Positions 4,469 through 59,254 are shown, counted from the first letter of the stretch. The stretch is 64,000 nt of DNA from an uncultured Candidatus Saccharibacteria bacterium (GCA_964428845.1 CAYRZH010000005.1:1647-65646), one strand, 5' to 3'. The notes: generated by a model not told the origin, from the letters alone. Numbers and translations: made by a program.

Positions 4469-4482
4469 ATTTGCGCTTGGTC

Positions 4483-4511
4483 TTGACACATACCAATGAT
4501 GAGTGTAGAAT
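4483..4511 (+). promoter_or_regulatory. Sigma70-type promoter TTGACA-17-TAGAAT driving GC-rich cassette 1
   Basis: TTGACA at 4483-4488, a 17-nt spacer and TAGAAT at 4506-4511, 15 nt after the upstream stop codon. Confidence 0.45.
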
Positions 4512-4679
4512 GCGGCGAGTATACAAAGCAGTTCTTTGGCGTAACCTTGTTGGTGGTCATAGCCAAAAGATGCTGATAAAAACTTTAATAGTTCGGCATT
4601 TTCTGGCTATGACTACCAGTGTGGTATGTCCTCTGGCAAAATCAAAACTGGCGAAAGCCTTGAGAAAGGGAAAAGCGCC

Positions 4680-5291
4680 ATGCACAAGCAAACTGCAGAG
4701 TTGATTGGCCGGATCGCCCAGAATCTTCCGGACATGGATGGAGACATCATGCAGGGCTGGATCAACAACCCCCGTGGTCTCCAGGGGGCTCTTAGATTGG
4801 CCCTCTGCCAACCAAAAGCCGGATCTGTTCCGAAGGAGGAAACTCCTCTCGACACCATCATCCGTGTCGATCGCACCATCCGTCCTGCCTACCCAAGCTG
4901 GGCAACGGAGGTGATGCACCCCGAACTGGAGACTGTTGGGCCTGCCGAGTACGACCTTGCCAAACGAATCAATCTCTGGTTCCACAACGCCCAGATAGTC
5001 GAAGGGCGATCGATGGGCACTGTCATCTACGGATTTCTGAAGGCAACCGATGGTCTGAAAACATGTCTCGGCCTTCACGGCGCAGTGGAGATTCAGCAGA
5101 AGGGCATCGTCGTTTTCCGAAAACTCTTCGGAGGTAGGGCAGTGTTCTGCTGGAAGTCGGTCGTTCGCGACCGCGATGGCAGCCTCCTCGTTCCGTACGT
5201 CTATGACGACGGTGTCAGTGTTGTGGTGCGCTGGCGCTGGCTCGGCCATGACTGGGTCTCCGACGGCCCTGCGGCTCGCTTCGTAAGTTGA
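4680..5291 (+). CDS. Hypothetical protein encoded in GC-rich cassette 1 (203 aa from ATG 4680; alternative start ATG 4626 gives 221 aa)
   Basis: ORF in a ~60% G+C stretch, with GAAAGGG SD-like site 9 nt upstream of ATG 4680 and on the same strand as the promoter and terminator. The competing antisense ORF 4557-5537(-) overlaps the next gene and looks like an antisense artefact. No family recognised. Confidence 0.4.
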   Translation: MHKQTAELIGRIAQNLPDMDGDIMQGWINNPRGLQGALRLALCQPKAGSVPKEETPLDTIIRVDRTIRPAYPSWATEVMHPELETVGPAEYDLAKRINLWFHNAQIVEGRSMGTVIYGFLKATDGLKTCLGLHGAVEIQQKGIVVFRKLFGGRAVFCWKSVVRDRDGSLLVPYVYDDGVSVVVRWRWLGHDWVSDGPAARFVS

Positions 5292-5392
5292 CACTTGGGA
5301 CTTAGTCCCTCGGGTCTTCTGGACCTCTTGATCTTTGTCCTTTGTATCGCGGCCATTTGCCGCAACGTACTCCAAAACGGTAACAATGGAAG

Positions 5393-5421
5393 CCTCGGGC
5401 AACAATGCTCGGGGTTTTTTT
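5393..5421 (+). terminator. Putative intrinsic terminator of cassette 1 (7-bp stem with 2 G-U pairs, 8-nt loop, T7)
   Basis: CCTCGGG-caacaatg-CTCGGGG followed by TTTTTTT. A second T-run follows at 5441-5447. Confidence 0.3.
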
Positions 5422-5461
5422 GTGAGCTGCCTGTCCACCGCTTTTTTTGTCTCAATTTTCC

Positions 5462-5470
5462 TGGTATAAT
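5462..5470 (+). promoter_or_regulatory. Extended -10 element (TGgTATAAT) for the VirD4-like gene
   Basis: tggtataat 20 nt upstream of ATG 5491. Confidence 0.3.
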
Positions 5471-5490
5471 TTCGCCAAAGCACATTTTCT

Positions 5491-7419
5491 ATGGACAACG
5501 ATCGCATCACATATTTCGCAGAGACCGACTCGCGCAATAAGCGAGTAGCATTTGGTATAAAATCAAAAGACCGATCTCGCCACGTCTACGTCATAGGTAA
5601 GACAGGTATGGGTAAATCCACCCTTCTTGAGAATATGGCTGTCCAAGACATCCAAAATGGGGAAGGCATGGCTTTCATAGATCCACACGGCAAGACTGCC
5701 GAGCTCCTACTTGAATACGTACCACAAGATCGCATGAAAGATGTGGTATATTTCGCGCCTTTTGACACCGAATACCCGATTTCCTTCAACGTCATGGAGG
5801 ATGTTGGTCCCAACAAACGCCATTTGGTTGCAAACGGTCTCATGAGTGCATTCAAAAAGATTTGGGTCGATGCTTGGTCGGCCCGCATGGAGTACATTTT
5901 GAATAATATTTTACTCGCTCTTCTCGAGTACCCAGATTCGACCCTGATCGGTGTAAATAGAATGCTAGCCGATAAAGACTATCGCAAGAAGGTCGTCGAC
6001 AATATCACCGATCCGTCGGTAAAAGCTTTTTGGACAGACGAGTTCGCAAAGTATGGCGATCGATATATGCAAGAAGCGGGAGCGGCAATTCAAAATAAAA
6101 TTGGGCAGTTTATCGCTAACCCTTTGGTGCGTAATATCATCGGCCAACCAAAATCGAGTTTCGATCTGCGAAAGATGATGGATGAAAACAAGATAATGAT
6201 CGTCAATCTCTCCAAGGGTCGCGTGGGCGAGGCCAACGCCAATCTCTTGGGTAGTATGCTCATCACAAAGATCTATCTGGCGGCCATGTCTCGTGCTGAT
6301 ACAAGTGAGAGTAAACTCAAGTCTCTTCCACAGTTCTATCTTTATGTCGACGAATTTCAGTCTTTTGCCAACGAATCTTTCGCCGACATTCTTTCGGAGG
6401 CTAGAAAATACAAGTTGAATCTAACCATGGCTCATCAATATATCGAGCAAATGTCGGAAGAAGTTCGAGCGGCAGTGTTTGGTAACGTCGGTACCATGAT
6501 CGTTTTCCGAGTGGGCGCTTACGACGCCGAAGTCCTCGAGAAGGAATTTGCCCCCACCTTTAGTGTAGAAGATCTGGTCAATCTGGGGTTTGTACAGATA
6601 TATCTTAAACTTATGATCGACGGCGTGACGTCTCCACCTTTTTCGGCAACCACACTGCCGCCGATCGATAAACCAGACATTTCATTCAGAGACGATATCA
6701 TAGAAAACTCAAGAAAAACCTTTGCTTCTCCAAGGAGTGAAGTGGAAGAGCAAATCAAAAAATGGCACGAGCCAGTAACTTCTATACGAAGAGATGATAG
6801 ACCAAGGCCGCCGCAAGGGACTGTAGAGTTTTCGCCGCGTCCGCAAACCCAAGCGCCGTCGTCTATGCCATCCCAACTGCCTCAACAACCGTCCCAACCG
6901 CAACCTGTTTCGAAGGTGTCACAACCACCACAACCCTCACAACCACCGCCTGCACCGCAACCTCCGCAACAAACTCCGCCACCTCCAAGACCTCCAGAGC
7001 CGCCCAGATCTATCCAGCCCACTTCTCCTCAACGGCCCCTTCAACAATCACCGCAGCCGCCGAGACCGGATTCCCATCGAGATCAACTTCCGCATCAGGC
7101 TCGACCAGTTTCTCTAGACACGCTCAAAAAAGATAAAGGACCAAGTGGTAAAAATCTTTCAGAGTTGAAAAACGCCCTTAGGGATTTGGTAGAACAGACA
7201 AAACAGCACAGCGAAAAAAAGGATGAGGGGCAGGAAGGGAAACACAACAACAAACCTCAAGAAAAACCGGCGATAGGGAATGGAAATCATAAATCCCAAG
7301 TCAAAGATAATCCTAAGCCTTCAAAAGATTCACCGCCACAAAGTCACCCCCCTCAAAAAGAAAAACCTCGGGAAGTTCCAGAAGATGTACTCCGCAAAGT
7401 CATCAACGGATCAAAGTAA
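5491..7419 (+). CDS. VirD4/TraG/TraD-like type IV secretion coupling ATPase with long C-terminal Pro/Gln-rich low-complexity tail
   Basis: Walker A VIGKTGMGKSTLLENM and Walker B-like YLYVDEFQSF. The N-terminal ITYFAETDSRNKR matches the CPR 'T4SS DNA-binding domain' protein family. The last ~210 aa are PQPSQP-type repeats. Confidence 0.6.
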   Translation: MDNDRITYFAETDSRNKRVAFGIKSKDRSRHVYVIGKTGMGKSTLLENMAVQDIQNGEGMAFIDPHGKTAELLLEYVPQDRMKDVVYFAPFDTEYPISFNVMEDVGPNKRHLVANGLMSAFKKIWVDAWSARMEYILNNILLALLEYPDSTLIGVNRMLADKDYRKKVVDNITDPSVKAFWTDEFAKYGDRYMQEAGAAIQNKIGQFIANPLVRNIIGQPKSSFDLRKMMDENKIMIVNLSKGRVGEANANLLGSMLITKIYLAAMSRADTSESKLKSLPQFYLYVDEFQSFANESFADILSEARKYKLNLTMAHQYIEQMSEEVRAAVFGNVGTMIVFRVGAYDAEVLEKEFAPTFSVEDLVNLGFVQIYLKLMIDGVTSPPFSATTLPPIDKPDISFRDDIIENSRKTFASPRSEVEEQIKKWHEPVTSIRRDDRPRPPQGTVEFSPRPQTQAPSSMPSQLPQQPSQPQPVSKVSQPPQPSQPPPAPQPPQQTPPPPRPPEPPRSIQPTSPQRPLQQSPQPPRPDSHRDQLPHQARPVSLDTLKKDKGPSGKNLSELKNALRDLVEQTKQHSEKKDEGQEGKHNNKPQEKPAIGNGNHKSQVKDNPKPSKDSPPQSHPPQKEKPREVPEDVLRKVINGSK

Positions 7420-7483
7420 AGTTAGCGGAAACTTTGTAACTCGTTTATACTCGATCTGATTGTAGTAGGATACCCGCACAGGC

Positions 7484-8677
7484 ATGAAAAAGAGAATTCT
7501 CATATTTTCCCTAGCATTTAAGCCATTTTTGGGTGGTGCTGAAATCGCTATAAAAGAGATTACCGATAGGATTTCGCCTACCGAATTGGAGTTTGACATG
7601 ATTACCCTTCGCTTCGATAGCAATCTGCCGAAGTTCGAGCGGGTAGGAAATATAAATGTGTATCGGATCGGTTTCTCAAAGAAATCTCCAACGATGACTG
7701 ATCTTGTGAAATTTCCGATGTATCTAAATAAAGTATTCTTTCCGGTCACCGCTTTTTTTAAAGCTCGGACTCTCGATCGAAAACAGAACTACAACGCGCT
7801 CTGGTGCATGATGTCTTATACAGGTTTTCCAGCTCTCTTCCTAAATTGGTTTGGGCGCCGAATTCCGATCATACTCACTCTACAAGAAGGTGATTCGATT
7901 TCTCATATTACCAAGCGTCTCCGGATTAGAATAGTCTTCCCACTTTATCGAGCCATTTTTAAAAAGGCTTCGGTGGTGCAAGCGATTTCAACATTTCTTG
8001 GAAGATTTGCCAGGGATATGGGGTTTCGTGGGCGTATCGAGATAATACCAAATGCGGTAGATACGAAACTCTTTTCAGAAAGAATCTCCGATAAAGACTT
8101 ATCGGACCTGAAGCAGAAAATGGATAAAAAAGACGGAGATGTTTTTCTCATCACCACATCTCGACTTGTGCCCAAGAACGCAGTTGGAGATGTGATCGAT
8201 TCTCTGAAACATCTCCCAGAAAACTATAAGTTTATTATTCTTGGTATCGGACCCCTTGAGAACTCACTAAAATCAAAAACTGATATGTTACATCTCAACC
8301 ACAGAGTGAGGTTTCTTGGTGAAGTCGAACATAAAATAATCCCCACATATCTTCAAGTATCAGACATCTTTATCCGCCCCTCACTCTCTGAAGGTATGGG
8401 GAATTCTTTCATAGAAGCTATGGCGGCTGGCATCCCAGTGGTGGGTACTGCTGTCGGTGGTATCACAGATTTTCTAAAAGACCGGTCGACTGGGGTTGTC
8501 TGTAAAGTAGGTGATTCTGTGGATATTGCCCAGAAGATAAAACTGCTTGTCGAGAACTCTTCTCTTCGAGAAAAAGTTATAAAAGAAGCCCGAGCTCTCG
8601 CCTTTGAAAAATACGACTGGAATCTCATCTCTAAAGAAATGAAAGAGAGGGTTTTTCAAAAGGCATTTTTTTGCTAA
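7484..8677 (+). CDS. Glycosyltransferase family 4 (GT-B, retaining)
   Basis: C-terminal EX7E region EGMGNSFIEAMAAGIPVVGTAVGGITDFL. Confidence 0.75.
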   Translation: MKKRILIFSLAFKPFLGGAEIAIKEITDRISPTELEFDMITLRFDSNLPKFERVGNINVYRIGFSKKSPTMTDLVKFPMYLNKVFFPVTAFFKARTLDRKQNYNALWCMMSYTGFPALFLNWFGRRIPIILTLQEGDSISHITKRLRIRIVFPLYRAIFKKASVVQAISTFLGRFARDMGFRGRIEIIPNAVDTKLFSERISDKDLSDLKQKMDKKDGDVFLITTSRLVPKNAVGDVIDSLKHLPENYKFIILGIGPLENSLKSKTDMLHLNHRVRFLGEVEHKIIPTYLQVSDIFIRPSLSEGMGNSFIEAMAAGIPVVGTAVGGITDFLKDRSTGVVCKVGDSVDIAQKIKLLVENSSLREKVIKEARALAFEKYDWNLISKEMKERVFQKAFFC

Positions 8678-8695
8678 ATTTAAGGTTATATTCAC

Positions 8696-9844
8696 ATGAA
8701 AGTCTTAATCTGCACGGGGATATTTCCACCCGAAATCGGTGGGCCGGCTACCTACGCCGGCCTTTTGGCGCAAGAGCTACCGAAACGTGGTTTTAGTGTC
8801 GAAATCTTCCCATTTCGGGAGGTTCGCGGTTACCCGCGGGGTATAAGGCATTTGATGTATTTCTTTGGGGTTTTTAGGCGAGGTTTTTTTGCCGATGTTA
8901 TTTTTACTCAAGATCCGGTTAGTACGGGTGTGCCAGTGGTTTGTGCCGCTTTCTTGATACGTAAAAGAGTCGTGTTGCGTGTGGCTGGAGACTATGCCTG
9001 GGAACAGGCACGCCAGCACTTTGCCGTTACTGATTCTATCGATGAATTTCAAAACAAGAAATATTCTTTTTTTGTAGAGCTTTTAAGAAAGTTGCAGACT
9101 TTTTCTGTGCGTTATTCTCATAGAGTAATAACTCCGAGCAATTATTTCAACAAGGTTGTCAGTAGTTGGCTTTGGGGCGGAGTAGAAGATATCGCGCGTA
9201 AAAATATCAGGGACAAAAATATCACCACAATTTACAACGGTATTGATATTCATGAAAACTTCAAGAAAGAATCAAAATTTTCTCAAAAAACGATTATAAG
9301 TGCCGGTAGACTGGTACCATGGAAAGGATTCGACGTGCTTATCGAAGCTTTGAGTAAAATGCCAGACTGGCAGCTCCTCATCGCCGGTGAGGGTCCTGAC
9401 AAGGGTAGACTTGTGGAAATTGTGTCGAAGCACAAGCTCGAGGATAGGGTAAATTTTTTGGGGAAGCTCGACCGCGCAGATTTGTTTTCTAAAATATATC
9501 GATCACATGTGTTTGCTCTGCTGTCTACTTTTGAGAGCTTTTCGTTTCAGGTTGTCGAAGCTATGTTTGTGGGGACTCCTGTTATCGCCGCCAAGATCGG
9601 CAATCTAGGGGAGATAATCGAAAACGAGGTGAATGGAATTCTTCTCGAGCCAAGAGATATCGATAGCTTCATAAGATACTCTAAAAAAATTGTTGAGGAT
9701 GATTCGTACAGAGGGAAAATTATTAATGCTGCATCTATACGCGCGGCCGACTTCTCCATCGACAAAACTATAGATCAACTTTCCAAAGTGCTACAAGAAA
9801 GCGGTAGGAGAAAAGATGGGAAAAGTATAGAGAAATCAAAATGA
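8696..9844 (+). CDS. Glycosyltransferase family 4
   Basis: FESFSFQVVEAMFVGTPVIAAKIGNLGEII motif and GT-B N-terminal domain (MKVLICTGIFPPEIGGPATY). Confidence 0.75.
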   Translation: MKVLICTGIFPPEIGGPATYAGLLAQELPKRGFSVEIFPFREVRGYPRGIRHLMYFFGVFRRGFFADVIFTQDPVSTGVPVVCAAFLIRKRVVLRVAGDYAWEQARQHFAVTDSIDEFQNKKYSFFVELLRKLQTFSVRYSHRVITPSNYFNKVVSSWLWGGVEDIARKNIRDKNITTIYNGIDIHENFKKESKFSQKTIISAGRLVPWKGFDVLIEALSKMPDWQLLIAGEGPDKGRLVEIVSKHKLEDRVNFLGKLDRADLFSKIYRSHVFALLSTFESFSFQVVEAMFVGTPVIAAKIGNLGEIIENEVNGILLEPRDIDSFIRYSKKIVEDDSYRGKIINAASIRAADFSIDKTIDQLSKVLQESGRRKDGKSIEKSK

Positions 9845-14175: not shown

Positions 14176-14201
14176 TTTCCTAATACAGGATATACAATAC
14201 A

Positions 14202-15521: not shown

Positions 15522-17257
15522 GGTTCGGTCTTACAAAGGATATGGGTAAAAAAAGTGTCTATCTTCTGATTGCAATCATTTTGGTCTCGGTATTTTTTCG
15601 AACTTGGAATATGACCAGTTTTGATGTTTCTGGAGATCATGCCTTAAACTCGCTGCGTTCTCTGGGGTGGCTCGACTATATACCAGGGGAAGGGCAAACG
15701 GGCCCAATCCAGTGGTTTGAAACCCGTCCCTCGTGGGCGGCCTGGTCGTTTCAAGACGCACCTCCGCTTGTTTTTATTATCCAGCATATAAGTTTTTTGT
15801 TTTTTGGTGATAATACATTTGCAGCTCGTTTACCGTTTGTTTTGGCGGGGATTTTGACCACCTTAATAATTTTCTTGCTTCTGAAGAAATACACCGATCA
15901 GAGGTCCGCTTTGATCGGCTCGGCATTATTTGCCATTTCTTCATATGCCGTCTGGGCAAGCCTAACTGGCTATCTGGAGGGCGTTCTGGTCTTTTTTCTT
16001 GCTCTTAGCCTATTTTTTGCCCTACCGTGGGTTACTGTAGGCGGAGGGAAAAAGAAATATCTCTGGCCTTTATTTGCGGCTTTCTCGCTTATGTCAAAAT
16101 ACACCGCTCTTTTTATCCTTCCGGCTGCAGCTGTTTCGTTTCTAGTATATTGGAGAGGCAGAGTATTTAATAAGAAAATACTCAAACATCTTGCGGTATC
16201 GTTTGTTATATTTGTGGTCATTCTTCTACCGTTAATTAACTACAACATTCATGTTTATAAGGCCCGCGGACACTTCGACTCCTCGCTCTCATCTCTCGTA
16301 GGAATATCTTCTCCAGACTTCTCTATCTTGGGTGATCGTCACGCTACGTTGGACATCGTGGGGAATGTGACATCGATGAAGAGTGTTCTCCTGGGTTCTA
16401 ATTCGTTACCATATCTGTTCCTATTTATATTTTCTGTTATCTGGCTCGTTGTTAGGTTTTTCATGAGAAGGAATAGTTTATTTGAAAATGTTCTTCTTCT
16501 CCACGTCATATTTCTAATCACCATGCTTGCTTTTTCGAGTAGTAATGCTGTGAGGATTCTCTCGGTCTTTTCTTTGTTTATGGCCACAACGTCAGCGATA
16601 TTTGTTGTTTCTTTCCATCGATTCCTAGTTTCAAGGAATAAAATTTTATCACACATATTTTTTGTGTTGTTTGCTATTATTTTTATAGCTGAAACTCTGT
16701 TTTCTCTAAACACCAACGTTCTGTCAAAACCTATTGGTTTTAAACCAGATCGTGCATCATCTTTTCTATATTCACCTTCGAGGATTTATGATAATGGTTG
16801 GAACGATATGGAGAGATATGTCGAGAAAAATATTATTTTAAAAAGAAACCCTATAGTGACAGCTACACGTTCGGAAGATATCACTCGTATTGATGACGAG
16901 ATTTATTTTAAAGGTCAGAACGTTCTTTTGTACGACGAACGGTTGAACTGGTTCAATCTATCGTGGTATTCCTATAAGTATCTAATTTATTATAAATTTC
17001 CTCTTTTTAAGGCTTCGGTGCTTGGAGAAGGCCTCGGCGGGAAAAGTTTTATTTCACAGGTCGACAGTATTGGAGCGAAACACATATACTTCATATACGG
17101 GATGGATGATGTCGTCTTGGATACTGTAAAGAAGCATGGCCCGGTTGCGGAAAGTACTAAGGCCTATAAGGAGGTACTAGATAAAGAGAAGGTTCCGTTT
17201 GAAGAAATAAAAGGTGCAGATGGTGGTGTGACGTTTAGGATTTATAAGATGAGATAA
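15518..17257 (+). CDS. ArnT/PMT-family (GT39/GT83-like) polytopic membrane glycosyltransferase
   Basis: N-terminal region (...ARLPFVLAGILTTLIIFLLLKKYTDQRSALIGSALFAISSYAV...) matches the undecaprenyl-/dolichyl-phosphate sugar transferase GT-C family. About 12 TM helices. Confidence 0.55.
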   Translation: MRFGLTKDMGKKSVYLLIAIILVSVFFRTWNMTSFDVSGDHALNSLRSLGWLDYIPGEGQTGPIQWFETRPSWAAWSFQDAPPLVFIIQHISFLFFGDNTFAARLPFVLAGILTTLIIFLLLKKYTDQRSALIGSALFAISSYAVWASLTGYLEGVLVFFLALSLFFALPWVTVGGGKKKYLWPLFAAFSLMSKYTALFILPAAAVSFLVYWRGRVFNKKILKHLAVSFVIFVVILLPLINYNIHVYKARGHFDSSLSSLVGISSPDFSILGDRHATLDIVGNVTSMKSVLLGSNSLPYLFLFIFSVIWLVVRFFMRRNSLFENVLLLHVIFLITMLAFSSSNAVRILSVFSLFMATTSAIFVVSFHRFLVSRNKILSHIFFVLFAIIFIAETLFSLNTNVLSKPIGFKPDRASSFLYSPSRIYDNGWNDMERYVEKNIILKRNPIVTATRSEDITRIDDEIYFKGQNVLLYDERLNWFNLSWYSYKYLIYYKFPLFKASVLGEGLGGKSFISQVDSIGAKHIYFIYGMDDVVLDTVKKHGPVAESTKAYKEVLDKEKVPFEEIKGADGGVTFRIYKMR

Positions 17258-20148: not shown

Positions 20149-20176
20149 TTGACATTTGTGCTAGTTTGTGTAATCA
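20149..20176 (+). promoter_or_regulatory. Sigma70-type promoter TTGACA-16-TAATCA driving GC-rich cassette 2, preceded by the 10-bp palindrome GTAATATTAC (20133-20142)
   Basis: TTGACA at 20149-20154 and TAATCA at 20171-20176. AAAGGAA SD-like site 7 nt before ATG 20241. Confidence 0.35.
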
Positions 20177-20240
20177 TTAAGTCAGGACATCCTTCAAGTA
20201 CAAATCGAAACGAAACCACCCTTTTGAAAGGAATAGAAAC

Positions 20241-20798
20241 ATGAAATTGCTTGATGAAGCTATCCTTTTTGCGGGCTCCCGAAGAGGGGCTCCGCTAAGT
20301 GATCTCGAGGTCACGCTCCTCGTCCTACTCATGGACAGGGTCAGGTGGCCGGTGCCGCAGCAGGTCTTCGAGGCCTGGGAGGGGAACTTCTACAACTGCG
20401 CTGTCGAGCTGGGTATCGGGAGGCCTGGGGAGGAAGAAGTCTTTCTCGTTCGCCGACCGAACACCGATCGGTATTACCCCGGTCAGTGGCATATGCCGGG
20501 GAAGGTCATTCTGCCGGGGATGAATATCCAAACCACTCTGGCGGCTCTCATTGACAATGAACTTGGTGGTGTGGATCTCGGACATATGACTCGGATCGAT
20601 ACATTCGAATTCTCGAAGGTTGATCGTCCGCGTGGTCAAGGTGTCTGTTTCCTGTTCCACGCTTCTGTGGATGTTGCGACCGCGGAACTGCTTCCCAACG
20701 GCCAGTTCTTCCCGGTTGACCAACTGCCGGAACCAATGATCGGCCACCACATCCCCATGATCAGAAGGCTGTTCTACGGTCGAGGCATCTCGCTCTAG
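20241..20798 (+). CDS. Nudix-fold protein with a degenerate Nudix box (GC-rich cassette 2)
   Basis: PGQWHMPGKVILPGMNIQTTLAALIDNELGGV occupies the Nudix box (GX5EX7REUXEEXGU) but most catalytic Glu/Arg residues are replaced. About 60-65% G+C. Confidence 0.5.
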   Translation: MKLLDEAILFAGSRRGAPLSDLEVTLLVLLMDRVRWPVPQQVFEAWEGNFYNCAVELGIGRPGEEEVFLVRRPNTDRYYPGQWHMPGKVILPGMNIQTTLAALIDNELGGVDLGHMTRIDTFEFSKVDRPRGQGVCFLFHASVDVATAELLPNGQFFPVDQLPEPMIGHHIPMIRRLFYGRGISL

Positions 20799-20814
20799 GA
20801 CCAGCACTCATACC

Positions 20815-20853
20815 CCCCCCGACCGCGCATGCGCGGTCGGGGGTTATTTTTTT
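20815..20853 (+). terminator. Strong rho-independent terminator (12-bp GC stem, CATG loop, T9)
   Basis: CCCCCGACCGCG-catg-CGCGGTCGGGGG followed by TTATTTTTTT. The T-run supplies the last codons and stop of the convergent DegT-like gene. Confidence 0.7.
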
Positions 20854-24349: not shown

Positions 24350-24376
24350 AAAAAAACGGCCCCGAAGGCGGGGCCG
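24350..24376 (-). terminator. Rho-independent terminator of GC-rich cassette 3 (minus strand)
   Basis: On the minus strand: CGGCCCCG-ccuu-CGGGGCCG followed by TTTTTTT. The T-run continues into the -35 (TTGTGC-17-TAGTAT) of the downstream GT8-like gene. Confidence 0.6.
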
Positions 24377-24416
24377 CTGTGTTCTTCTCTGTCTTCACTC
24401 TGTCCGACTGGTCCGG

Positions 24417-25103
24417 TCACCGGCCGACAGGCTTCCATCCACCGCGCACATCGGCGAAGGATGGGCGATGAGGATCGAGAACCCATTGGAGCAGGTAACA
24501 GTTGTGGTCGACGATTCGCGGGTCCCCTCGCCTCACTTCATCCGGGGTGAAGATTGTCCACTCACCCTCGAAACCCTCCACGTCCACCACAGAGACCTTC
24601 CTGCGGTGCATGATTGTCGCGCAAGCGCAACGTCTTTCGGGTTCGTCGTGGATCGTCACACCGAGGAACTGGATACCCGGTCTCATGGGGAGGAGATCAT
24701 CTCCGGCGTCACGGAAATCCCTTTCCAGGGCGCTTGCTGGCGTATCGAATCTTCGGATAACTGTGCACGGGCTGTGGTACAGCCCGGCCCACGCGTCGCC
24801 GACCTCGGTCGCCGGATCGCGAAGCTTCAGGGCAAATCCCAGAAACTCGTTACCCTTCCACACTTCATGAACGATCTGAACCGAAGCGCAGAATCCTGCC
24901 ATGCCGACGAGAAGTTCGAAGACCTCTTTCGGCACGCCGCCCATCGTTGTACTCCTGCTTCCATGCCGGGCCCGTTCGGTCAGCTCTGCGATGTGGGAGA
25001 TGATTGGGGCGAGCTCCACGAGCGGAATGTCCCTGATCATCCCCAGGGCACTAAGCGCCAGGGACTGGTGAGAGCTGTCTCGCGTCTGCGCAATCGTCTT
25101 CAT
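24417..25103 (-). CDS. Hypothetical protein, 228 aa (GC-rich cassette 3)
   Basis: ORF in ~57% G+C DNA, flanked on the same strand by a perfect consensus promoter and a terminator. AAAGAAAGGG SD-like site before the ATG. No family recognised. Confidence 0.5.
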   Translation of the reverse strand: MKTIAQTRDSSHQSLALSALGMIRDIPLVELAPIISHIAELTERARHGSRSTTMGGVPKEVFELLVGMAGFCASVQIVHEVWKGNEFLGFALKLRDPATEVGDAWAGLYHSPCTVIRRFDTPASALERDFRDAGDDLLPMRPGIQFLGVTIHDEPERRCACATIMHRRKVSVVDVEGFEGEWTIFTPDEVRRGDPRIVDHNCYLLQWVLDPHRPSFADVRGGWKPVGR

Positions 25104-25166: not shown

Positions 25167-25195
25167 ATTATAGTACTTCTATTGACTATTGTCAA
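25167..25195 (-). promoter_or_regulatory. Perfect consensus sigma70 promoter TTGACA-17-TATAAT (minus strand) for cassette 3
   Basis: On the minus strand TTGACA (25195-25190), a 17-nt spacer and TATAAT (25172-25167). The -35 is embedded in the partial palindrome TTGACaataGTCAA. Confidence 0.5.
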
Positions 25196-25211: not shown

Positions 25212-25936
25212 CTAAGATTTCCGTGCCAAAACCACGTTATCCATATACAAATCCTGGTTTGCCGGCAAGATTTTTGAAAGCACAATTCCTAAAATCGTGA
25301 AAGGTGAAATGAGTAAAACATACCAAAATACTCGAAGCCAGTATGACTGAATCCATTCAAGTCTTTTGTGAATAAAGCAAGCGACAAGCTGAAATATGAC
25401 GCGAACGTCCGACGCAGTTTTTATATGTCTTTCAATTTTAAAACCACTTTTTCTTAGGAGGTGTGCGAGACCAAAAGATGAGTATCTTGCATAATCGTGG
25501 GGCTTTTCGTGCTCGTCCCAAACGAAAGGCACGGTGAGAAGAAGAGCACCTCCAGGCATCGTTACTCGCGCTACCTCTTTCAAGAACTGATCAGGATTAA
25601 AAACATGTTCCAATACTTGAGTGGCAATAACAGAATCGAAGGAGTTATTCTCAAAAGGAAATTTCTCGCCACTGTACCAGGTATCAATCCTCTTGAAGCG
25701 AGCGCGATTTTCTGGCGAGTCAAATTCCATGCCGATATAAGGTGAAACATGGGTAAAAATCTTCTCGTAAGGCCGCTCGCCACAGCCGACATCAAGCGTT
25801 TTCCCGTGGATTTCTGCACCAAGACACTACCTGGCCCTTCGTAGCTCTCGCCGAACCAAATAGAAGGGATTGATAAAGATACCCAATAATCCCGGGTTAA
25901 AATATTGGTCGCGAATATATGATTTTATGCCAGTCA
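25212..25936 (-). pseudogene. Class I SAM-dependent methyltransferase interrupted by a single in-frame TAG (complement 25827-25829)
   Basis: The frame reads MTGIKSYIRDQYFNPG...RRAR-TAG-CLGAEIHGKTLDVGCGERPYEK... and continues into ORF 25212-25730. The SAM motif I (LDVGCG) lies downstream of the stop with no in-frame start, so the gene is disrupted as assembled. Confidence 0.5.
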
Positions 25937-25941
25937 TCGGA

Positions 25942-39471: not shown

Positions 39472-39504
39472 AAAAAAAGACCACCAAGTTTTATCTCGGT
39501 GGTC
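39472..39504 (-). terminator. Rho-independent terminator of GC-rich cassette 4 (minus strand)
   Basis: On the minus strand GACCACCgagauaaaacuuGGUGGUC followed by TTTTTTT. A TAGACA-17-TATTAT promoter for pseB follows immediately at 39454-39426. Confidence 0.5.
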
Positions 39505-39531: not shown

Positions 39532-40569
39532 TCAGATCAATGTGGCAACCATTCTCCGTATCGCTTGACCCCTCTCTTCGAGCTTGGGAACAGGGAAGGC
39601 TGATTCTTGGTGTGCCCTCATGGATTCGAATCCGCCCGGGTGCAGCAGCCTTTTGATGGTACAAGCTAGTTTATCGACAGAACCAAAGTAGACCCCCTCT
39701 GAAGCACCAAGTTCTACCAGCTTCCATGGGTCCTTACCGATTGTAGCTGGCCGGCCTTTGAGTGCGACGGTGGTACAGAAGTCAATGACGGGTTTACGCA
39801 GGCAAGCTGCCTGGATGCCTATTGTCGAATTGAACTCTACCACCATATCGCACCCAATGACTATCTCGGAGGTGGGGATTCCGACGTGTTTACCAACGAC
39901 CTTTACCGGACAGCCGGCATACCGCCAGACATCCTCGTACAAAGATGGGCTATTCAGATCACCAGGATGAAATCCAATCAACAGTTCGATCTGCGAACCA
40001 AACCTTCGATTGAGCGAACCAACTGCTTCTCCGGCTGCTCCAAAAAGCAGCATGTTAAGGGCAAGATACTTGTCGCCTGGGCAAAGGATGAGTTTGCGGT
40101 CATCGAAGACCGAGAGTCGCTCTCGTGCCTGAACCCGTGTCTGTACGGGGAAAGCAAACTCCTCCCATCTTGGATTTCCCGTCGCTACGATGTTGGCTTT
40201 CGGGAAATAGGTGGCTGCATCCCGTCCTTCATCCGCGTTGATGACAAAGAGTGTTTCCACGAAATCTCGGACTGGCTCAAAAGCCGGTAGTCGGTGATTA
40301 CCAAATGTGTCGGCATAAAGACTGCAACGTACCCCGATTCGATGAGCTTCTGTTACGGCCATCACCTCGTCGTCAGACAGGTTGGACATTGTTACCACCA
40401 AGTTGTTAGCTGAGGCGATTTCGTGCTTGATAGCCTCGGTTGGCAGAGCTTCTGCTCGTCCACCGCGCAGGAAAGACACAACCTCGACACCACGCTCTTG
40501 GAGTACTTCTCCTAACATTCGCATAACTTCTGACTGCGCAAAGTCACCGGCCACAAGCACAGTTTTCAC
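39532..40569 (-). CDS. GT-B-like sugar transferase with weak LpxB (GT19)-like motifs (GC-rich cassette 4)
   Basis: GTG start 6 nt after an AGGAGG SD. N-terminal VLVAGDFAQSEVMRMLGEVLQERG resembles the LpxB N-terminus (ALVAGEASGDILGAGLIRALK). The LILCPGDK and CDMVVEFNSTIGIQAACLRKPVI regions fit a GT-B C-domain. About 50-55% G+C. From memory only. Confidence 0.4.
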   Translation of the reverse strand: MKTVLVAGDFAQSEVMRMLGEVLQERGVEVVSFLRGGRAEALPTEAIKHEIASANNLVVTMSNLSDDEVMAVTEAHRIGVRCSLYADTFGNHRLPAFEPVRDFVETLFVINADEGRDAATYFPKANIVATGNPRWEEFAFPVQTRVQARERLSVFDDRKLILCPGDKYLALNMLLFGAAGEAVGSLNRRFGSQIELLIGFHPGDLNSPSLYEDVWRYAGCPVKVVGKHVGIPTSEIVIGCDMVVEFNSTIGIQAACLRKPVIDFCTTVALKGRPATIGKDPWKLVELGASEGVYFGSVDKLACTIKRLLHPGGFESMRAHQESAFPVPKLEERGQAIRRMVATLI

Positions 40570-40645: not shown

Positions 40646-40675
40646 TTTATACCACAACTTTATGAGTGGAGTCAA
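40646..40675 (-). promoter_or_regulatory. Sigma70 promoter TTGACT-18-TATAAA with extended -10 (TGgTATAAA), minus strand, for cassette 4
   Basis: On the minus strand TTGACT (40675-40670) then ...TGTGGTATAAAT. Confidence 0.4.
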
Positions 40676-46960: not shown

Positions 46961-47048
46961 TTTAGTTTTTTTTAAAGAAGTATTTATCAAGAATATGTTG
47001 TCCTATGGTGACTACTGTATTATTATGAAGCCAAGAAGATTGCGCGAG

Positions 47049-47113: not shown

Positions 47114-47143
47114 TTTGCACAATTTACTCTCGAAGTTACCACA

Positions 47144-48175: not shown

Positions 48176-48257
48176 CTTTGACTCAAACCAGCCTTCGGTT
48201 AAATTTTAGTGGAGTTTTGTGCTAAAATACACTGGTTTTTCCTGGTCTATACATTTT

Positions 48258-50774: not shown

Positions 50775-50776
50775 AT

Positions 50777-51424: not shown

Positions 51425-51466
51425 TCGAATATAAATATTGGGGTTAGCATCTAACCCTGTGCTATA

Positions 51467-51850: not shown

Positions 51851-51868
51851 CCTAGTTTCCCAAACATT

Positions 51869-52408
51869 ATGTCTCAATCGTTTATAGTCAATGCTTCTGC
51901 TATAGGGACTCTTGTGGTTCATGTTGTCCTAGTAATTTTTGGGTTGACTCTTATTTTACACAAAGAGTCTGCTTTTCGGTTTATGCGTTATTTCTCTCCA
52001 TACGCATTTATTTTTTCCTTTGCTGTGGCACTTCTCGGGATTGTTGGAAGTATTTTGTACTCAGAAATTATTGGTTTTGATCCATGCGTTCTCTGTTGGC
52101 TCGAGAGAGTTTTGTTGTACCCCCAGGTAATAATTTTTGGGATAGCAATCTTTCGTCGCGATGACTCCATTATTCCGTATATACTTGGGCTATCTATCCC
52201 TGGAGTTATTCTTTCTCTTTATCACGCCTCCGTCCAACTTGGAGGTTTTTCCCTCACAGCTTGCACTTCAGAAGGGGGTTCGTGTTCCAAGGTGTACGTT
52301 CTCGAATATGGCTACATAACAATACCTCTCATGGCTTTTACGGCGTTTCTTCTTATTGTTATAAGCACTCTTATACGAAAAAAGAATTTAGGAAAATTGG
52401 CTTCGTAA
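51869..52408 (+). CDS. Disulfide bond formation protein B homolog (DsbB/BdbC family)
   Basis: 4-TM protein with ...EIIGFDPCVLCWLERVLLYPQV... (CxxC) matching the BdbC/DsbB N-terminal pattern, and a second Cys pair (TACTSEGGSCS). Confidence 0.55.
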   Translation: MSQSFIVNASAIGTLVVHVVLVIFGLTLILHKESAFRFMRYFSPYAFIFSFAVALLGIVGSILYSEIIGFDPCVLCWLERVLLYPQVIIFGIAIFRRDDSIIPYILGLSIPGVILSLYHASVQLGGFSLTACTSEGGSCSKVYVLEYGYITIPLMAFTAFLLIVISTLIRKKNLGKLAS

Positions 52409-52411
52409 GGA

Positions 52412-55147: not shown

Positions 55148-56031
55148 AAAAACACAAAATCATAACCCATAGTGGTTCTTATCACTGCGATGATGTCATG
55201 GCTGTTGCTACCTTGTCTCTTTTTCTAGGTAAGGATGCCGTGGAAATTGTTCGAACCAGAGACGAAGAGGTAATTAAAACTGGAGACTACGTTGTCGATG
55301 TTGGTGGCATCTACGATGAAACTAGATATCGGTTTGACCACCACCAAAAAGAAGGAGCCGGAGTCCGTCCCAACGGTATTGCTTACGCTTCTTTTGGTTT
55401 GGTCTGGAAATATTGTGGAGAAAAGGTAAGTACTTCGAGCGAAGTCGCGCAGATAGTTGAGAGGAAGCTAGTAGAACCTGTCGATGCTGTTGATAATGGT
55501 ATCGATTTGGTGGATTATAGAATTCCTAATACACATCTGTATTTAATCCAGGATTTTTTTCGTTCTTTTTCTCCAACCTGGAAAGAGGAGGGTGCTGATG
55601 TTGATGAAATATTTTTCAAATTGGTAGATGTTGCTCGAGATTTGCTCACGAGAGAGATAAAAAGAGCCAAAGATGGAGTCGAAGCAGTACGACTAGTAGA
55701 GGAAGCTTATAAAAATAGTTCGGACAAACGGCTAATTATATTAGAAAAAGATTGGCCGTGGAGACAAGTTCTCGACAAGTACACCGAACCTGTTTATGTT
55801 GTATCACCGGATAGAGATGGTCACTGGAATGCCCGAACCGTTCAAAAGAAGCTTCTCTCTTTTGAAAATAGGAAGGATTTTCCTACCGAGTGGGCAGGGA
55901 AGAAAGGAGAAGAGTTTAGGAAAATAAGTGGAGTAGAGGATGCGATCTTCTGCCACAAGAACCTTTTCTTTGCCTGTGCCGAGTCTAAAGAAGGTACTAT
56001 AAAGCTTGCCAAGCTTGCTCTAGAAAAATAA
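55144..56031 (+). CDS. UPF0160/MYG1-family metal-dependent hydrolase
   Basis: IITHSGSYHCDDVMAVATLSLFLG and RFDHHQKEG motifs. Confidence 0.6.
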   Translation: MKKHKIITHSGSYHCDDVMAVATLSLFLGKDAVEIVRTRDEEVIKTGDYVVDVGGIYDETRYRFDHHQKEGAGVRPNGIAYASFGLVWKYCGEKVSTSSEVAQIVERKLVEPVDAVDNGIDLVDYRIPNTHLYLIQDFFRSFSPTWKEEGADVDEIFFKLVDVARDLLTREIKRAKDGVEAVRLVEEAYKNSSDKRLIILEKDWPWRQVLDKYTEPVYVVSPDRDGHWNARTVQKKLLSFENRKDFPTEWAGKKGEEFRKISGVEDAIFCHKNLFFACAESKEGTIKLAKLALEK

Positions 56032-56032
56032 T

Positions 56033-57001
56033 ATGGCTTTCGTCGATGAAATAAAACTACATCTTGAGGCGGGCAGTGGTGGTTCTGGGGTTGTCCGTTG
56101 GCGTCACGAGAAAGGAAAGGATAAAGCCGGAGCTGCCGGTGGAAATGGTGGAAGAGGTGGGGATGTGTACATGCAAACAGTCCGTGATCTGGGCGTACTT
56201 GCCCGATACAAACAGATAAAAGTTTTTCGTGCCAAAAATGGTGAAGATGGTATGCAAAGTAGCATGCATGGCAAAAAAGGAGAAGATCTGTCTATAGATG
56301 TCCCCATTGGTAGTGCTGTCACAAATCTTCTAAATGGTAAAAAGATAAATTTTCTAAAGGAAGGGGAGAAGGTCCTGGTTCTGTCTGGTGGTAACGGGGG
56401 GTTAGGAAACGAGCATTTCAAAGCTTCTACAAATGTAAAACCGAAAGAACATACTCCAGGGAAAGCGGGCGAGTCCGCCGATTTCCTAATAGAGCTCGAA
56501 CTTGTCGCAGATCTTGGGCTTGTTGGTCTTCCGAATGCCGGTAAGTCTAGTCTACTCAACGCTCTGACCAATGCCAAATCAAAAGTAGCAAGCTATCCAT
56601 TTACTACTCTCGAGCCTGATCTGGGGGACATGTTTGGCTTTATTATCGCTGATATCCCGGGTCTCATTGAAGGAGCCTCTATGGGTAAGGGACTCGGTCA
56701 CAAGTTTTTGAGACACATAAAGAGGACGAGAATGATTCTTCATTGTGTAGCAGCCGACAGTGAAGATATTTTGAATACGTACAAAACAATCCGCAATGAG
56801 CTCAAAACATACAGTAAAGAACTATCAGAAAAACCAGAGATTATTATAATCACAAAAATAGATGAAGTTCCCCAGGAAGTTGTTAAAGAAAAAACAAAAA
56901 TACTTTCAAAATTCTCAAAACACATTTTTACTGTTTCTGTGCTCGATGATTCATCTGTGAAGGGTCTACGGGATGGGCTGATTAAAATTTTGAACAAATA
57001 G
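56033..57001 (+). CDS. obg: GTPase Obg/CgtA
   Basis: Glycine-rich Obg fold (GGSGVVRW...GGNGGRGGDVY) and G-domain GLVGLPNAGKSSLLNALTNA, DIPGLIEGA, TKID. Confidence 0.8.
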   Translation: MAFVDEIKLHLEAGSGGSGVVRWRHEKGKDKAGAAGGNGGRGGDVYMQTVRDLGVLARYKQIKVFRAKNGEDGMQSSMHGKKGEDLSIDVPIGSAVTNLLNGKKINFLKEGEKVLVLSGGNGGLGNEHFKASTNVKPKEHTPGKAGESADFLIELELVADLGLVGLPNAGKSSLLNALTNAKSKVASYPFTTLEPDLGDMFGFIIADIPGLIEGASMGKGLGHKFLRHIKRTRMILHCVAADSEDILNTYKTIRNELKTYSKELSEKPEIIIITKIDEVPQEVVKEKTKILSKFSKHIFTVSVLDDSSVKGLRDGLIKILNK

Positions 57002-57017
57002 AAAGCGCGCCGTCTTC

Positions 57018-57662
57018 TTAGACTAGCGCGCCTTGAGGTCTCCTTTCTCTCATCATCGTGCGGAGGATGAGGCAGACCGTGATGCCCGAAGTGATTGCTG
57101 CTCTCGTTCCGTAAAGAAATCCGAGGGCATCGTTTTTCTCTATCGCGGGCACAAGACAGAGAATCGACGAGATGCAAATGCTGGCCCAGGTGAAGAGTGA
57201 TTCGGTCTTCTCGTTCTGTCCCCAGAGCTTCTGGGCGAGGGCAGTGTAGCCGATCACCATAAGAATCTGGGTCAAGACGTTCGAAATCGTCGCCGCAAGT
57301 TCGTTGCCCACGTAGAACCGCAAGATGCACCAGAGTGCAACGATTCCTGCAGACCAAATGAGGCATCTTACTTGGAATCGGCTGAACTTCACCCGAAGCT
57401 CTTTTCTGCAGAGCTGTATCAGGGCCACTGCCACGAGAATCGAACCCGTAGATACAATGGCGCTCAAGTTCCCGATGTTCCCGACGAGACTGTGGTTCGG
57501 GGAGTTCCAATAACTCCAGAAGCCGATGGCTATTGTTGTACCGAAAATAATCCAGGATGCCAAGACGGGGCGAATCTTGCCGCGGAGGGCAAGATAGATG
57601 TACCATGCGGTGCCGAGCCCTATGCCGGCAACCGACAACAGGACTGCTGCACTCGATAGCAT
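57018..57662 (-). CDS. Hypothetical 6-7 TM membrane protein, 214 aa (GC-rich cassette 5)
   Basis: Start ATG (rc 57660-57662) 6 nt after a GGAGAG SD-like site. About 55% G+C. Hydrophobic helices throughout. No family recognised; size and topology are compatible with a small-solute transporter. The alternative-frame ORF 56740-57669(-) was rejected. Confidence 0.45.
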   Translation of the reverse strand: MLSSAAVLLSVAGIGLGTAWYIYLALRGKIRPVLASWIIFGTTIAIGFWSYWNSPNHSLVGNIGNLSAIVSTGSILVAVALIQLCRKELRVKFSRFQVRCLIWSAGIVALWCILRFYVGNELAATISNVLTQILMVIGYTALAQKLWGQNEKTESLFTWASICISSILCLVPAIEKNDALGFLYGTRAAITSGITVCLILRTMMRERRPQGALV

Positions 57663-57692
57663 GACACACTCTCCATTCAAAAGAACTTTCTT

Positions 57693-57713
57693 ATGGTGAT
57701 ACGTTATCACCAT
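57693..57713. promoter_or_regulatory. Perfect 9-3-9 palindrome ATGGTGATA-cgt-TATCACCAT in the leader of the cassette-5 gene (operator-like or leader hairpin)
   Basis: Lies between the -10 (57729-57724) and the start codon (57662) on the minus strand. Confidence 0.35.
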
Positions 57714-57723
57714 TTCTGCTACT

Positions 57724-57752
57724 ATGATAGCATATTTGACTCTTTTTGTCAA
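57724..57752 (-). promoter_or_regulatory. Sigma70 promoter TTGACA-17-TATCAT (minus strand) for cassette 5
   Basis: On the minus strand TTGACA (57752-57747), a 17-nt spacer and TATCAT (57729-57724). Confidence 0.45.
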
Positions 57753-57829
57753 TAAAAAAGATATATCAAAAGCGCCAATCTTAGGCGTATAATTCGAGTA
57801 ACTTTTGAACTTATGATACAATCGCCGTT

Positions 57830-59254
57830 ATGAACAAGGAATACGTCACTACCGTCGGTCTTGAGATACATGCGGAACTCAAAACCAAGACAAAAATGTT
57901 CTGTGATTCCAAAAACGACCCTGATGAAACTAGGCCAAACGTAAACATTTGTCCGATATGTATGGGGCACCCCGGGACACTTCCGGTTACGAACAAAGAA
58001 GCAGTGAAGCATGTCCTTCGGGTGGGGGTGGCTCTGGGTGGAACTCTAGCAGACTTTACAGAGTTTGATCGCAAAAATTATTTTTACCCAGATATTCCTA
58101 AGGGCTACCAGATCAGCCAGTACAAAAATCCTCTCGTTGTCGGTGGAAGCCTTCTCGGGGTAAAAATCACAAGAATCCATCTTGAGGAGGATACCGCAAA
58201 GTCAACCCATGACACGGGCGAGCATAGTTTAGTCGACTTCAATCGGGCTGGAGTGCCTCTTATGGAGCTTGTCACCGAGCCGGTGATTCATTCGGCTCAA
58301 GATGCTTCAAATTTTGCTAAGGAGCTTCAGCTTTTACTCCAGTATTTGGGAGCTAGTGATGCCAACATGGAGAAGGGAGAGATGCGAATAGAGGCAAATA
58401 TTTCAGTCGCTCCCGCTGGTAAACGCGGTACGAAAGTCGAAGTCAAGAATCTGAATTCGTTTCGTTCGGTTGAGAGAGCAATTCTTTTTGAAACAAAAAG
58501 GCATGTGGAATTGATCGAAGGAGGTGGAATTGTCGTCCAGGAAACCAGAGGCTGGGACGAGACTAAAAATACTAGTTTCTCGCAGAGGCTTAAAGAAGAA
58601 TCACATGATTACAGGTACTTTCCAGATCCAGATTTACCTAAGCTCAAACTGTCAGAAATTAAAGATTTTCAGAGGGAAAAATTAAGGGAGGAACTTCCTG
58701 AATTACCCTGGCAAAAGAGAGAAAGGCTAAAAAAGGAGTTTGGTCTAAAAGATGAAGATGTCGAAGTTTTTGTACGTTCTCATGAGTGGGGCAAGTATCT
58801 CGAGTCGGTCGCGGCATCTCTTGGTGGAAATAAAAAACTTGTTGTTCTCGCTTCCAACTATATAACATCTGATCTAGCGGGACTTGTTAAAAATTCTTCT
58901 GTTGTCTGGGACGGCAATACTCCTACCGCGTCAAATTTTTCAAGGCTAATGCTGATGATTGACTCGGGCAAGATCTCCTCACGTGGTGCGAAGGATATCC
59001 TAAAGGTCATGTACGAGAAAGGCACTGAACCCGAGGTGGTCGCAGAAAAACAAAATCTTCTACAGAAGAGCGACGAAGGCGAGTTGGGAGCTATTATCAA
59101 AAAGATTATTGATGCAAACAGCGCGGTTGTCCTAGATTATAAGAATGGTAAGGAGCCAGCACTTCAGTTTCTGATCGGGCAGGCGATGAAGGAGACAAAA
59201 GGTTCTGCTAACCCAGAAATTCTAAAAAAGTTATTTTTGTCATCCATCCAGTAG
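57830..59254 (+). CDS. gatB: Aspartyl/glutamyl-tRNA(Asn/Gln) amidotransferase subunit B (GatB)
   Basis: VGLEIHAELKTKTKMFC N-terminal motif and a C-terminal YqeY-like tail (LQFLIGQAMKETKGSANP). Confidence 0.85.
   Translation: MNKEYVTTVGLEIHAELKTKTKMFCDSKNDPDETRPNVNICPICMGHPGTLPVTNKEAVKHVLRVGVALGGTLADFTEFDRKNYFYPDIPKGYQISQYKNPLVVGGSLLGVKITRIHLEEDTAKSTHDTGEHSLVDFNRAGVPLMELVTEPVIHSAQDASNFAKELQLLLQYLGASDANMEKGEMRIEANISVAPAGKRGTKVEVKNLNSFRSVERAILFETKRHVELIEGGGIVVQETRGWDETKNTSFSQRLKEESHDYRYFPDPDLPKLKLSEIKDFQREKLREELPELPWQKRERLKKEFGLKDEDVEVFVRSHEWGKYLESVAASLGGNKKLVVLASNYITSDLAGLVKNSSVVWDGNTPTASNFSRLMLMIDSGKISSRGAKDILKVMYEKGTEPEVVAEKQNLLQKSDEGELGAIIKKIIDANSAVVLDYKNGKEPALQFLIGQAMKETKGSANPEILKKLFLSSIQ

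Follow-up and report, generated by a model that had tools for sequence, protein, structure and literature searches.

Atypical G+C content is the standard flag for foreign DNA, and it raises a plain question about a 64,000 nt stretch from an uncultured Candidatus Saccharibacteria bacterium (GCA_964428845.1, CAYRZH010000005.1:1647-65646; the window): are the five G+C-rich, single-gene segments lying between its native genes (here called cassettes c1 to c5) recent foreign insertions? The original prediction leaned towards repeated acquisition of independently expressed foreign genes, or else a dispersed set of accessory genes acting together. The analysis given here suggests a different answer. 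The segments are probably old, lineage-restricted genes of Patescibacteria, organised as separate transcription units whose G+C content is held above that of the host, rather than recent insertions. Against fresh import stands the finding that in related genomes these genes recur at the same positions and show the G+C excess there too; atypical G+C would in this instance mark genes inherited in place across diverged genomes.

Composition of the Five Cassettes

A 400 nt composition profile of the window gave five clear G+C peaks at the predicted positions. The native reference set, 49 open reading frames (ORFs) in the window, has 41.4 ± 2.1% G+C and a third-codon-position G+C (GC3) of 0.394 ± 0.029. 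The corresponding values for the cassette coding sequences (CDSs) are 57.7% and 0.66 for c1 (4680-5291, + strand), 56.3% and 0.65 for c2 (20241-20798, +), 60.0% and 0.69 for c3 (24417-25103, −), 52.2% and 0.52 for c4 (39532-40569, −), and 53.8% and 0.67 for c5 (57018-57662, −), and every one of them exceeds all 49 native genes in GC3. The five predicted G+C-rich single-gene segments (52-60%, GC3 0.52-0.69) are therefore real compositional outliers.

The excess is confined to the CDSs and the terminator stems. Intergenic flanks of the cassettes are 34-48% G+C, apart from a 45 bp terminator slot (20799-20843) at 76%, and the promoter and leader regions share the AT-richness of intergenic DNA elsewhere. 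Within the CDSs, codons ending in C and codons ending in G are both raised (AAG from 0.30 in native genes to 0.58 in cassettes, CTG from 0.11 to 0.25, CCG from 0.22 to 0.40), and the shift takes in four-fold codons too. Amino acid usage is also displaced, with lysine falling from 8.1% to 3.2% and Arg, Ala, Gly and Val rising.

A sixth G+C bump, at 6800-7200, is no more than the Pro/Gln-rich tail of a native ATPase gene. This TrwB/VirD4-like ORF (5491-7419, +) has a long, low-complexity C-terminal tail that produces a G+C peak with strong C-over-G skew. A similar peak occurs near the 3′ end of a homologous TrwB/VirD4-like ATPase gene on a related contig (L040, 1101-1750).

Promoters and Terminators

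Both strands of the whole window were scanned for promoter-like sites, scored out of 12 against TTGACA-N16-18-TATAAT; all signals described here are read from the sequence alone. Only three sites scored 11 or more, and each is correctly oriented upstream of a cassette: TTGACA-17-TAGAAT for c1 (4483-4511, +; 11/12), a perfect TTGACA-17-TATAAT for c3 (25167-25195, −; 12/12), and TTGACA-17-TATCAT for c5 (57724-57752, −; 11/12). The site upstream of c2 (20149-20177, +), TTGACA-17-AATCAT, scored 10/12, and that of c4 (40646-40675, −) is TTGACT-18-TATAAA with a TG upstream (extended −10). The claim that each cassette has its own near-consensus promoter was upheld.

All five units close with a hairpin and, after it, a T-rich tail; the hairpin energies range from −17 to −28 kcal/mol. 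These comprise a terminator-like hairpin and T-run after c1 (5389-5421, +; −18 kcal/mol), terminators after c2 (20814-20853, +; −28 kcal/mol), c3 (24350-24378, −; GGCCCCG-CCUUC-GGGGCC plus T7) and c4 (39472-39504, −; −17 kcal/mol), and a hairpin with T-rich tail (56995-57032, −; −18 kcal/mol) that overlaps the stop codons of both c5 and Obg. The four hairpin and T-run terminators proposed for c1 to c4 were recovered, while the hairpin of c5, previously called weak, is stronger than had been judged. The exact fit described for c2 between its neighbours was also seen: its stem ends at 20843, and the T-run covers the stop codon (20844-20846) and last codons of the convergent DegT gene. At the level of sequence signals, the cassettes are independent transcription units, with promoter and terminator, placed between unrelated genes.

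Conservation in Related Genomes

An 8.3 kb contig from another sample (L044) is collinear with the window between 20.2 and 28.4 kb. It carries a GT2 glycosyltransferase, two methyltransferases, a c3 homologue, a 317 aa gene, a dehydratase, an FdtA-like gene, a DegT gene and a convergent c2 homologue. The flanking proteins are 56-79% identical between the two, c3 is 54-55% identical, and c2 is 47-48% identical over the part present on the contig. In L044 the c2 and c3 homologues have 55% G+C and a GC3 of 0.62-0.63, compared with 41-45% and 0.41-0.52 for their neighbours. Both boundaries of c3 can be aligned; the −35 and −10 hexamers are identical, the spacer is mostly kept, and the terminator T-run and downstream sequence are conserved, while the 5′ leader is not. 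Synonymous divergence (dS, NG86 method) is saturated in flanks and cassettes alike (above 1.5 or undefined), yet cassette GC3 is still 0.60-0.70 in both genomes. Given this saturation, a plain leftover of an acquisition that preceded the split should have decayed.

A second locus (L042) shows the C-terminus of Obg, a c5 homologue (63% identity) and the N-terminus of GatB (87%) in the same arrangement as the window and with a homologous promoter. The junction arrangements of c2, c3 and c5 are thereby reproduced in independent assemblies, and the units must already have been present in, at the least, the common ancestors of the window with L044 and of the window with L042.

Further homologues were located for c1 (L043), c3 (L045, L046/L047), c4 (L039, L040, L048, L050) and c5 (L041), in backgrounds of 36-47% G+C. 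A TTGACA- or TTGACT-type promoter was found at each of these loci except L046/L047, for example TTGACA-17-TACTAT at the c1 locus of L043 and TTGACT-17-TATAAA at the c4 homologue of L050; the promoter is perfect in L041 and in L044. A hairpin and T-run terminator follows the gene in L044, L045, L048 and L050. The GC3 of the homologue exceeds that of the host genes in 10 of 11 non-window loci (binomial p = 0.012), and wherever a locus contains several genes the homologue is the GC3-richest. In the c4 family the relationship is close to a constant offset (GC3 = 1.07 × host GC3 + 0.108; r = 0.9965, n = 5), amounting to 0.48-0.63 on the logit scale over hosts with GC3 of 0.27-0.53. Host-like composition of the same genes at the same loci had been named in advance as a finding that would speak against foreign acquisition. 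The same genes do occupy the same loci, but their composition there is still not host-like.

Among 597 ORFs of the related loci, promoter-like sites of at least 11/12 were found in 4 of 20 GC3 outliers and in 8 of 577 others, in a crude scan in which some antisense frames were called; this is suggestive of GC3 outliers carrying such sites more often. Other genes with raised G+C were seen in L050 (7958-8569; a DUF218 gene, 48.5% against 39.9%) and in L048 (2951-3931, 4728-6296 and 11199-13509; GHMP kinase, SIS, transaldolase, radical SAM and GFO/IDH genes, 51-54% against 47%), so the cassette families of the window are not the sole outliers. Small genes with GC3 0.14-0.23 above the locus median occur in two other Paceibacteria loci, L008 (5139-5696, −; 16980-17255, +) and L016 (15865-16356, +). 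They have TTGACA- or TTGACT-type promoters (10-11/12) and weak or no Pfam matches, and may be further members of the same class.

Possible Causes of the G+C Excess

If the cassettes are old, maintained units, each would be kept as a transcription unit of its own with a strong sigma-70-type promoter, a Shine-Dalgarno (SD) site and an intrinsic terminator, and its coding region would be held 7-18 G+C points (0.12-0.29 in GC3) above the host genome. The excess would then be a family trait balanced against the AT-biased mutation of the host, not a fading foreign signature, and the gene-specific, G+C-favouring force that offsets this mutation would be about 0.5-0.6 logit units for c4 and 0.7-1.2 for c3. 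One candidate for the force is selection on genes that are strongly and separately expressed, acting on their coding DNA or their transcripts; the other is GC-biased gene conversion at loci that recombine often. The latter, reported for recombining bacterial genes (Lassalle et al. 2015, PMC4450053), resembles the cassettes in producing a gene-specific rise in GC3, amino acid effects and a faster rate without a foreign origin. Conversion tracts should, however, raise neutral intergenic sites as well, whereas the cassette excess ends sharply at the boundaries between CDS and untranslated region, and for this reason selection is slightly favoured. The faster protein divergence and the amino acid shift fit either force. 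As a tentative generalisation, there may be in Patescibacteria a class of stand-alone genes with strong promoters, the CDSs of which would be kept well above genomic G+C by a gene-specific force (GC-biased conversion at recombination hot spots, or selection acting on coding DNA or transcript), with an excess that is heritable, family-specific and, in hosts of any composition, roughly constant on the logit scale. The pattern is reproducible and, as far as found, undescribed, on small samples.

Several observations weigh against this account. A shift at all codon positions and in amino acid usage is the pattern expected after long residence in a GC-richer genome. In the closest relative, L042, the c5 homologue lacks the excess and matches its host, leaving a gap of 7.6 G+C points between the two c5 genes. 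In most relatives Obg and GatB are separated by only 20-130 bp, with no gene between them, which implies that c5 either entered during the history of the group or was lost from it many times. Apart from this slot, the sites compared in relatives are not empty, those of c2 and c3 being occupied in L044 and that of c5 in L042; for c1 and c4 no relative with the same gene order was found. The cassettes also diverge faster than most of their flanks (63% identity for c5 against 87% for GatB; 47% for c2 and 54% for c3 against 56-79%), which replacement with divergent alleles would explain equally. Selected mRNA structure found no support as the cause of the high G+C, as synonymous-codon shuffles gave z scores of −2.5 to +0.2, the same range as native genes. 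Expression-linked codon bias was rejected as well: the shift includes G-ending and four-fold codons and amino acids, and ribosomal protein L31 genes lie at the locus median GC3, with no excess, in three related genomes, a weak comparison at n = 3. Each family is represented by a small sample (2-5 loci), and at several of the loci compared a single flanking gene was available.

The serious rival to long-term maintenance, although rather unlikely in our judgement, is recurrent replacement within Patescibacteria, in which the slots stay fixed while homologous recombination repeatedly puts divergent alleles of GC-richer relatives in place of the CDSs, which therefore never reach host composition. 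Allele swapping would explain why the cassette proteins are more divergent than most flanks, and also the L042 exception, where the 7.6-point difference in c5 exists despite GatB N-termini that are 87% identical. Possible donors exist in Paceibacteria loci of 50-58% G+C, the transfers detected in Patescibacteria are mostly between Patescibacteria (PMC12455944), and conserved promoters and terminators could act as recombination anchors. What it would not explain is the constant c4 offset, since an excess that holds over host GC3 of 0.27-0.53 (r = 0.997) is unexpected from a fixed donor pool. Moreover, all hosts found to hold a family member lie below the cassette in G+C, and none of the homologue contexts examined is as GC-rich as the gene itself, as a donor lineage would be. 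The closest homologues are only 47-64% identical, and a search of 5.8 billion protein clusters brought up no recent donor.

Considerably less probable is a series of five independent and fairly recent acquisitions, in which genes of GC-rich donors came in complete with their expression signals, as phage morons do. Morons are independent transcription units inserted between phage genes (PMC3594210); like the cassettes they are single genes with their own promoter and terminator and a composition unlike their surroundings, and, like c5, they are inserted between genes that are adjacent in relatives. In contrast, the cassettes lie in a cellular chromosome among housekeeping and glycan genes, not in a prophage, are conserved in position across diverged genomes, and have a persistent composition excess. 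The features that made foreign acquisition attractive, namely the strong outliers in composition and codon usage, the self-contained signals and the mostly empty Obg-GatB slot, all stand. Against them are the same genes in the same slots of diverged relatives with alignable boundaries (c2 and c3 in L044, c5 in L042), GC3 retained after saturation of dS, promoter regions as AT-rich as the host, and the lack of insertion scars; each homologue context examined is a glycan or housekeeping neighbourhood of candidate phyla radiation (CPR) type with 36-47% G+C. Recent independent acquisition is largely refuted for c2, c3 and c5, and is unlikely for c4. Direct and inverted repeats at the ten cassette boundaries are no longer than chance, giving no sign of target-site duplications or terminal repeats; no integrase is present among the annotated window genes, and neither known RNA families nor tRNA genes that could be integration targets were found in the window. 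A phage or viral origin was also rejected, as no relatives were found for c2, c3 or c4 in viral contigs or for c1 or c5 in phage records.

Two other known systems were compared. Acquired islets reportedly drift to host composition (amelioration, as described by Lawrence and Ochman in 1997). Such islets share with the cassettes a narrow taxonomic spread and outlying composition and codon usage at all codon positions. Amelioration predicts convergence once synonymous sites are saturated, whereas in both lineages the cassettes have kept a GC3 that is 0.12-0.29 higher than that of the host and, in the c4 family, follows host GC3 at a constant offset. Integron gene cassettes are promoterless ORFs with an attC site, placed in an array beside an integrase, whereas c1 to c5 each have their own promoter, are dispersed over 53 kb and have no shared terminal repeats.

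An artefact, whether chimeric assembly, contamination or inserted and engineered cassettes, is scarcely credible. The near-consensus promoters and textbook terminators do look designed, but independent assemblies from other samples repeat the arrangement of gene, slot and signals (L041, L042, L044, L045, L048 and L050), and each cassette is a complete unit set exactly between genes. In addition, the exact c2, c4 and c5 proteins occur on a single 67,890 bp NCBI contig together with native genes (Obg, GatB and a native glycosyltransferase).

If the maintenance of old, G+C-rich units is confirmed on a larger sample, island predictions in streamlined candidate-phyla genomes will need re-reading, because such genes would be composition outliers that are not foreign and would mislead composition-based detection of transfer. 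The cassettes would also provide a natural system for measuring G+C-favouring forces in bacteria, and a clean case in which mutation bias, selection on G+C and biased gene conversion could be separated. They would further point to a small set of separately expressed, fast-evolving accessory enzymes of surface glycans (two Gmm-like Nudix proteins and a new GT-B family), which may matter for surface presentation by these episymbionts.

The Nudix-Fold Genes c2 and c3

The c2 product (185 aa) matches the Pfam NUDIX family (PF00293, E = 7.8e-6, 26.4 bits against a cut-off of 21.1 bits). In NCBIfam it meets only MutT, NudI and generic Nudix family hydrolase models, all far below their cut-offs. The c3 product (228 aa), which gave nothing in NCBIfam and had been taken for an orphan, belongs to a family of 82 representative clusters (exhaustive search) and has a Nudix fold by structure prediction. 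Its model (pLDDT 92) gave 109 PDB matches at E ≤ 0.001 with Foldseek, Nudix proteins dominating those listed, and the best match is E. coli GDP-mannose mannosyl hydrolase (1rya; target TM 0.69-0.73, 18-20% identity). The c3-family profile aligns with c2 from end to end (hhalign probability 92%, E = 5e-7), so the two are, on profile evidence, distant paralogues.

Direct reading and alignment show that the canonical Nudix box (GX5EX7REUXEEXGU) is missing in both. The equivalent region of c2 reads G-KVILP-G-MNIQTTL-AALIDNELG, with the Glu and Arg-Glu positions replaced, in agreement with the earlier description of c2 as a degenerate Nudix-fold protein; that of c3 reads C-TVIRR-F-DTPASAL-ERDFRDAGD, and the c3 family consensus retains only R...E.FG. 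E. coli Gmm (WcaH/NudD), from the colanic acid cluster, is like c3, and like c2 through homology, in its Nudix fold and in its genomic setting: c2 and c3 are likewise in a polysaccharide cluster, beside a GDP-mannose-4,6-dehydratase-like gene and a DegT aminotransferase. The differences are the degenerate Nudix box and, for c3, an identity of only 18-20%, extra N-terminal helices (about 70 aa) and a conserved C-terminal IVDHH motif. By analogy with GDP-mannose mannosyl hydrolase, the c2 and c3 proteins probably act on nucleotide sugars of the adjoining GDP-6-deoxy-aminosugar branch, by binding or hydrolysis.

The methyltransferase gene upstream of c3 (25212-25937, −) has an in-frame TAG at codon 37 (25829-25827), and the ORF list holds the 172 aa remainder. 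It aligns over its full length (240 aa, 77% identity) to an intact 241 aa gene in L044. Possible explanations of the TAG are read-through, an error of sequencing, and a nonsense mutation that has left a pseudogene.

The GT-B Gene c4

The start of c4 as first read was corrected to GTG 40569, because the NCBI protein is 345 aa. No match was found in Pfam, NCBIfam or a PDB sequence search, but the structural model (pLDDT 91, pTM 0.85) gave 224 PDB matches at E ≤ 0.001 with Foldseek, those listed being GT-B enzymes. MshA/BshA, UDP-GlcNAc 2-epimerases (WecB/MnaA/NeuC), MGD1 and LpxB match about equally; the model resembles these enzymes at TM of about 0.6-0.68, whereas identity to the structures is 11-17% and c4 has family motifs of its own (YADTFG, TGNPRWEEF and LHPGD, among 15 aligned members). 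Of the earlier description of c4 as GT-B/LpxB-like, the first part agrees with the model. The second does not: there is no supporting Pfam or NCBIfam match, and LpxB ranks 11-12 among the GT-B matches. LpxB itself was rejected on this rank, on an rmsd of 20 Å and on the context, a nonulosonic acid and glycan cluster rather than lipid A.

Sixteen c4 homologues were found (35-52% identity). In these data the family occurs only in glycan-cluster contigs resembling Patescibacteria, and the only homologue with a source name (P0012) is assigned to Patescibacteria. From analogy of fold and context, c4 probably performs a glycosyl transfer, epimerase or hydrolase step in the nonulosonic acid branch by the PseB-like gene.

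The Genes c1 and c5

The original prediction placed the start of c1 at 4626; ATG 4680, giving a protein of 203 aa, is most likely correct, because the homologue carries an in-frame stop upstream of the equivalent ATG. No match to c1 was found in Pfam, NCBIfam, PADLOC or phage records. It is no longer an orphan, as at least one relative exists, L043 being the sole one detected (53% identity). The L043 homologue (979-1515) is broken by a frameshift near nt 1293-1320, and may be a pseudogene or an assembly error. Long ORFs antisense to c1 and c3 were rejected as genes: the antisense ORF in L044 is in another frame, and L043 has none. Those of the window lie in the codon-aligned antisense frame, which meets few stops where TTA, CTA and TCA codons are seldom used.

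The 5′ leader of c1 contains a long hairpin (4552-4617, +) with a stem of about 27 bp and a fold z of −4.8. A two-sequence alignment and fold showed that its left arm is missing in the L043 leader, and that about 60 nt together with a short stem by the SD and AUG (GGCG...CGCC) are kept at about 75% identity. The leader may serve in regulation or stabilisation.

The c5 product (214 aa, hydrophobic) reads as a polytopic membrane protein and has four homologues. A perfect hairpin (GGTGATA-ACG-TATCACC) is present in its leader (57695-57711, −), and a different hairpin occupies the same relative position in L042 (about 545-570), downstream of the promoter homologous to that of c5; this may be a conserved leader structure. 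In L041, the c5 homologue has, at a distance of about 1 kb, a Y1 transposase-like (IS200/IS605-type) gene of unusually low G+C (6355-7017, −; 33% against 44%).

Genomic Setting

By sequence similarity the host appears to be a member of the Patescibacteria, and is Paceibacteria-like; its Obg is 50-60% identical to those of the closest Parcubacteria/Paceibacteria metagenome-assembled genomes. Between about 3 kb and 47 kb the window forms a single large region of cell-surface glycan genes (about 40 kb), within which c1 to c4 lie. It begins with a DUF4015 gene, c1 and the TrwB-like ATPase gene, followed by several GT4, GT1 and GT2 glycosyltransferase and PMT_2 genes, and then c2. Next are DegT, FdtA-like and GDP-mannose-dehydratase-like genes, the 317 aa gene, which has no assigned function, and c3. 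Beyond c3 are genes for methyltransferases, a GT2 enzyme, NeuB, a HAD hydrolase, an ATP-grasp enzyme, an epimerase, a GNAT acetyltransferase and a PIG-L deacetylase, then for a formyltransferase, a CMP-sugar cytidylyltransferase, a second DegT protein and a PseB-like protein, and then c4. The region closes with PhyH-like, methyltransferase, and Wzt and Wzm exporter genes, and a divergent gene for a Wzy_C-TPR protein. Other neighbours in the window are Obg, GatB, MurB and a Mur ligase. A PADLOC scan for defence systems gave nothing meaningful.

The suggestion that the cassettes are accessory genes acting together was partly supported, as c2 and c3 are paralogues and c2 to c4 share one glycan cluster. 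For c1 and c5 no such link emerged, and c2 and c3 homologues are absent within 8-10 kb of the c4 homologues at four c4 loci.

The minus-strand genes between 20844 and 44581 look like a complete nonulosonic acid pathway (pseudaminic or legionaminic type) in a Paceibacteria-like genome. The pathway genes are the PseB-like gene, the two DegT genes, and those for GNAT, NeuB and the CMP-sugar cytidylyltransferase. Beside them stand the formyltransferase, PIG-L, ATP-grasp, HAD and several methyltransferase genes, and the Wzm/Wzt ABC exporter is included.

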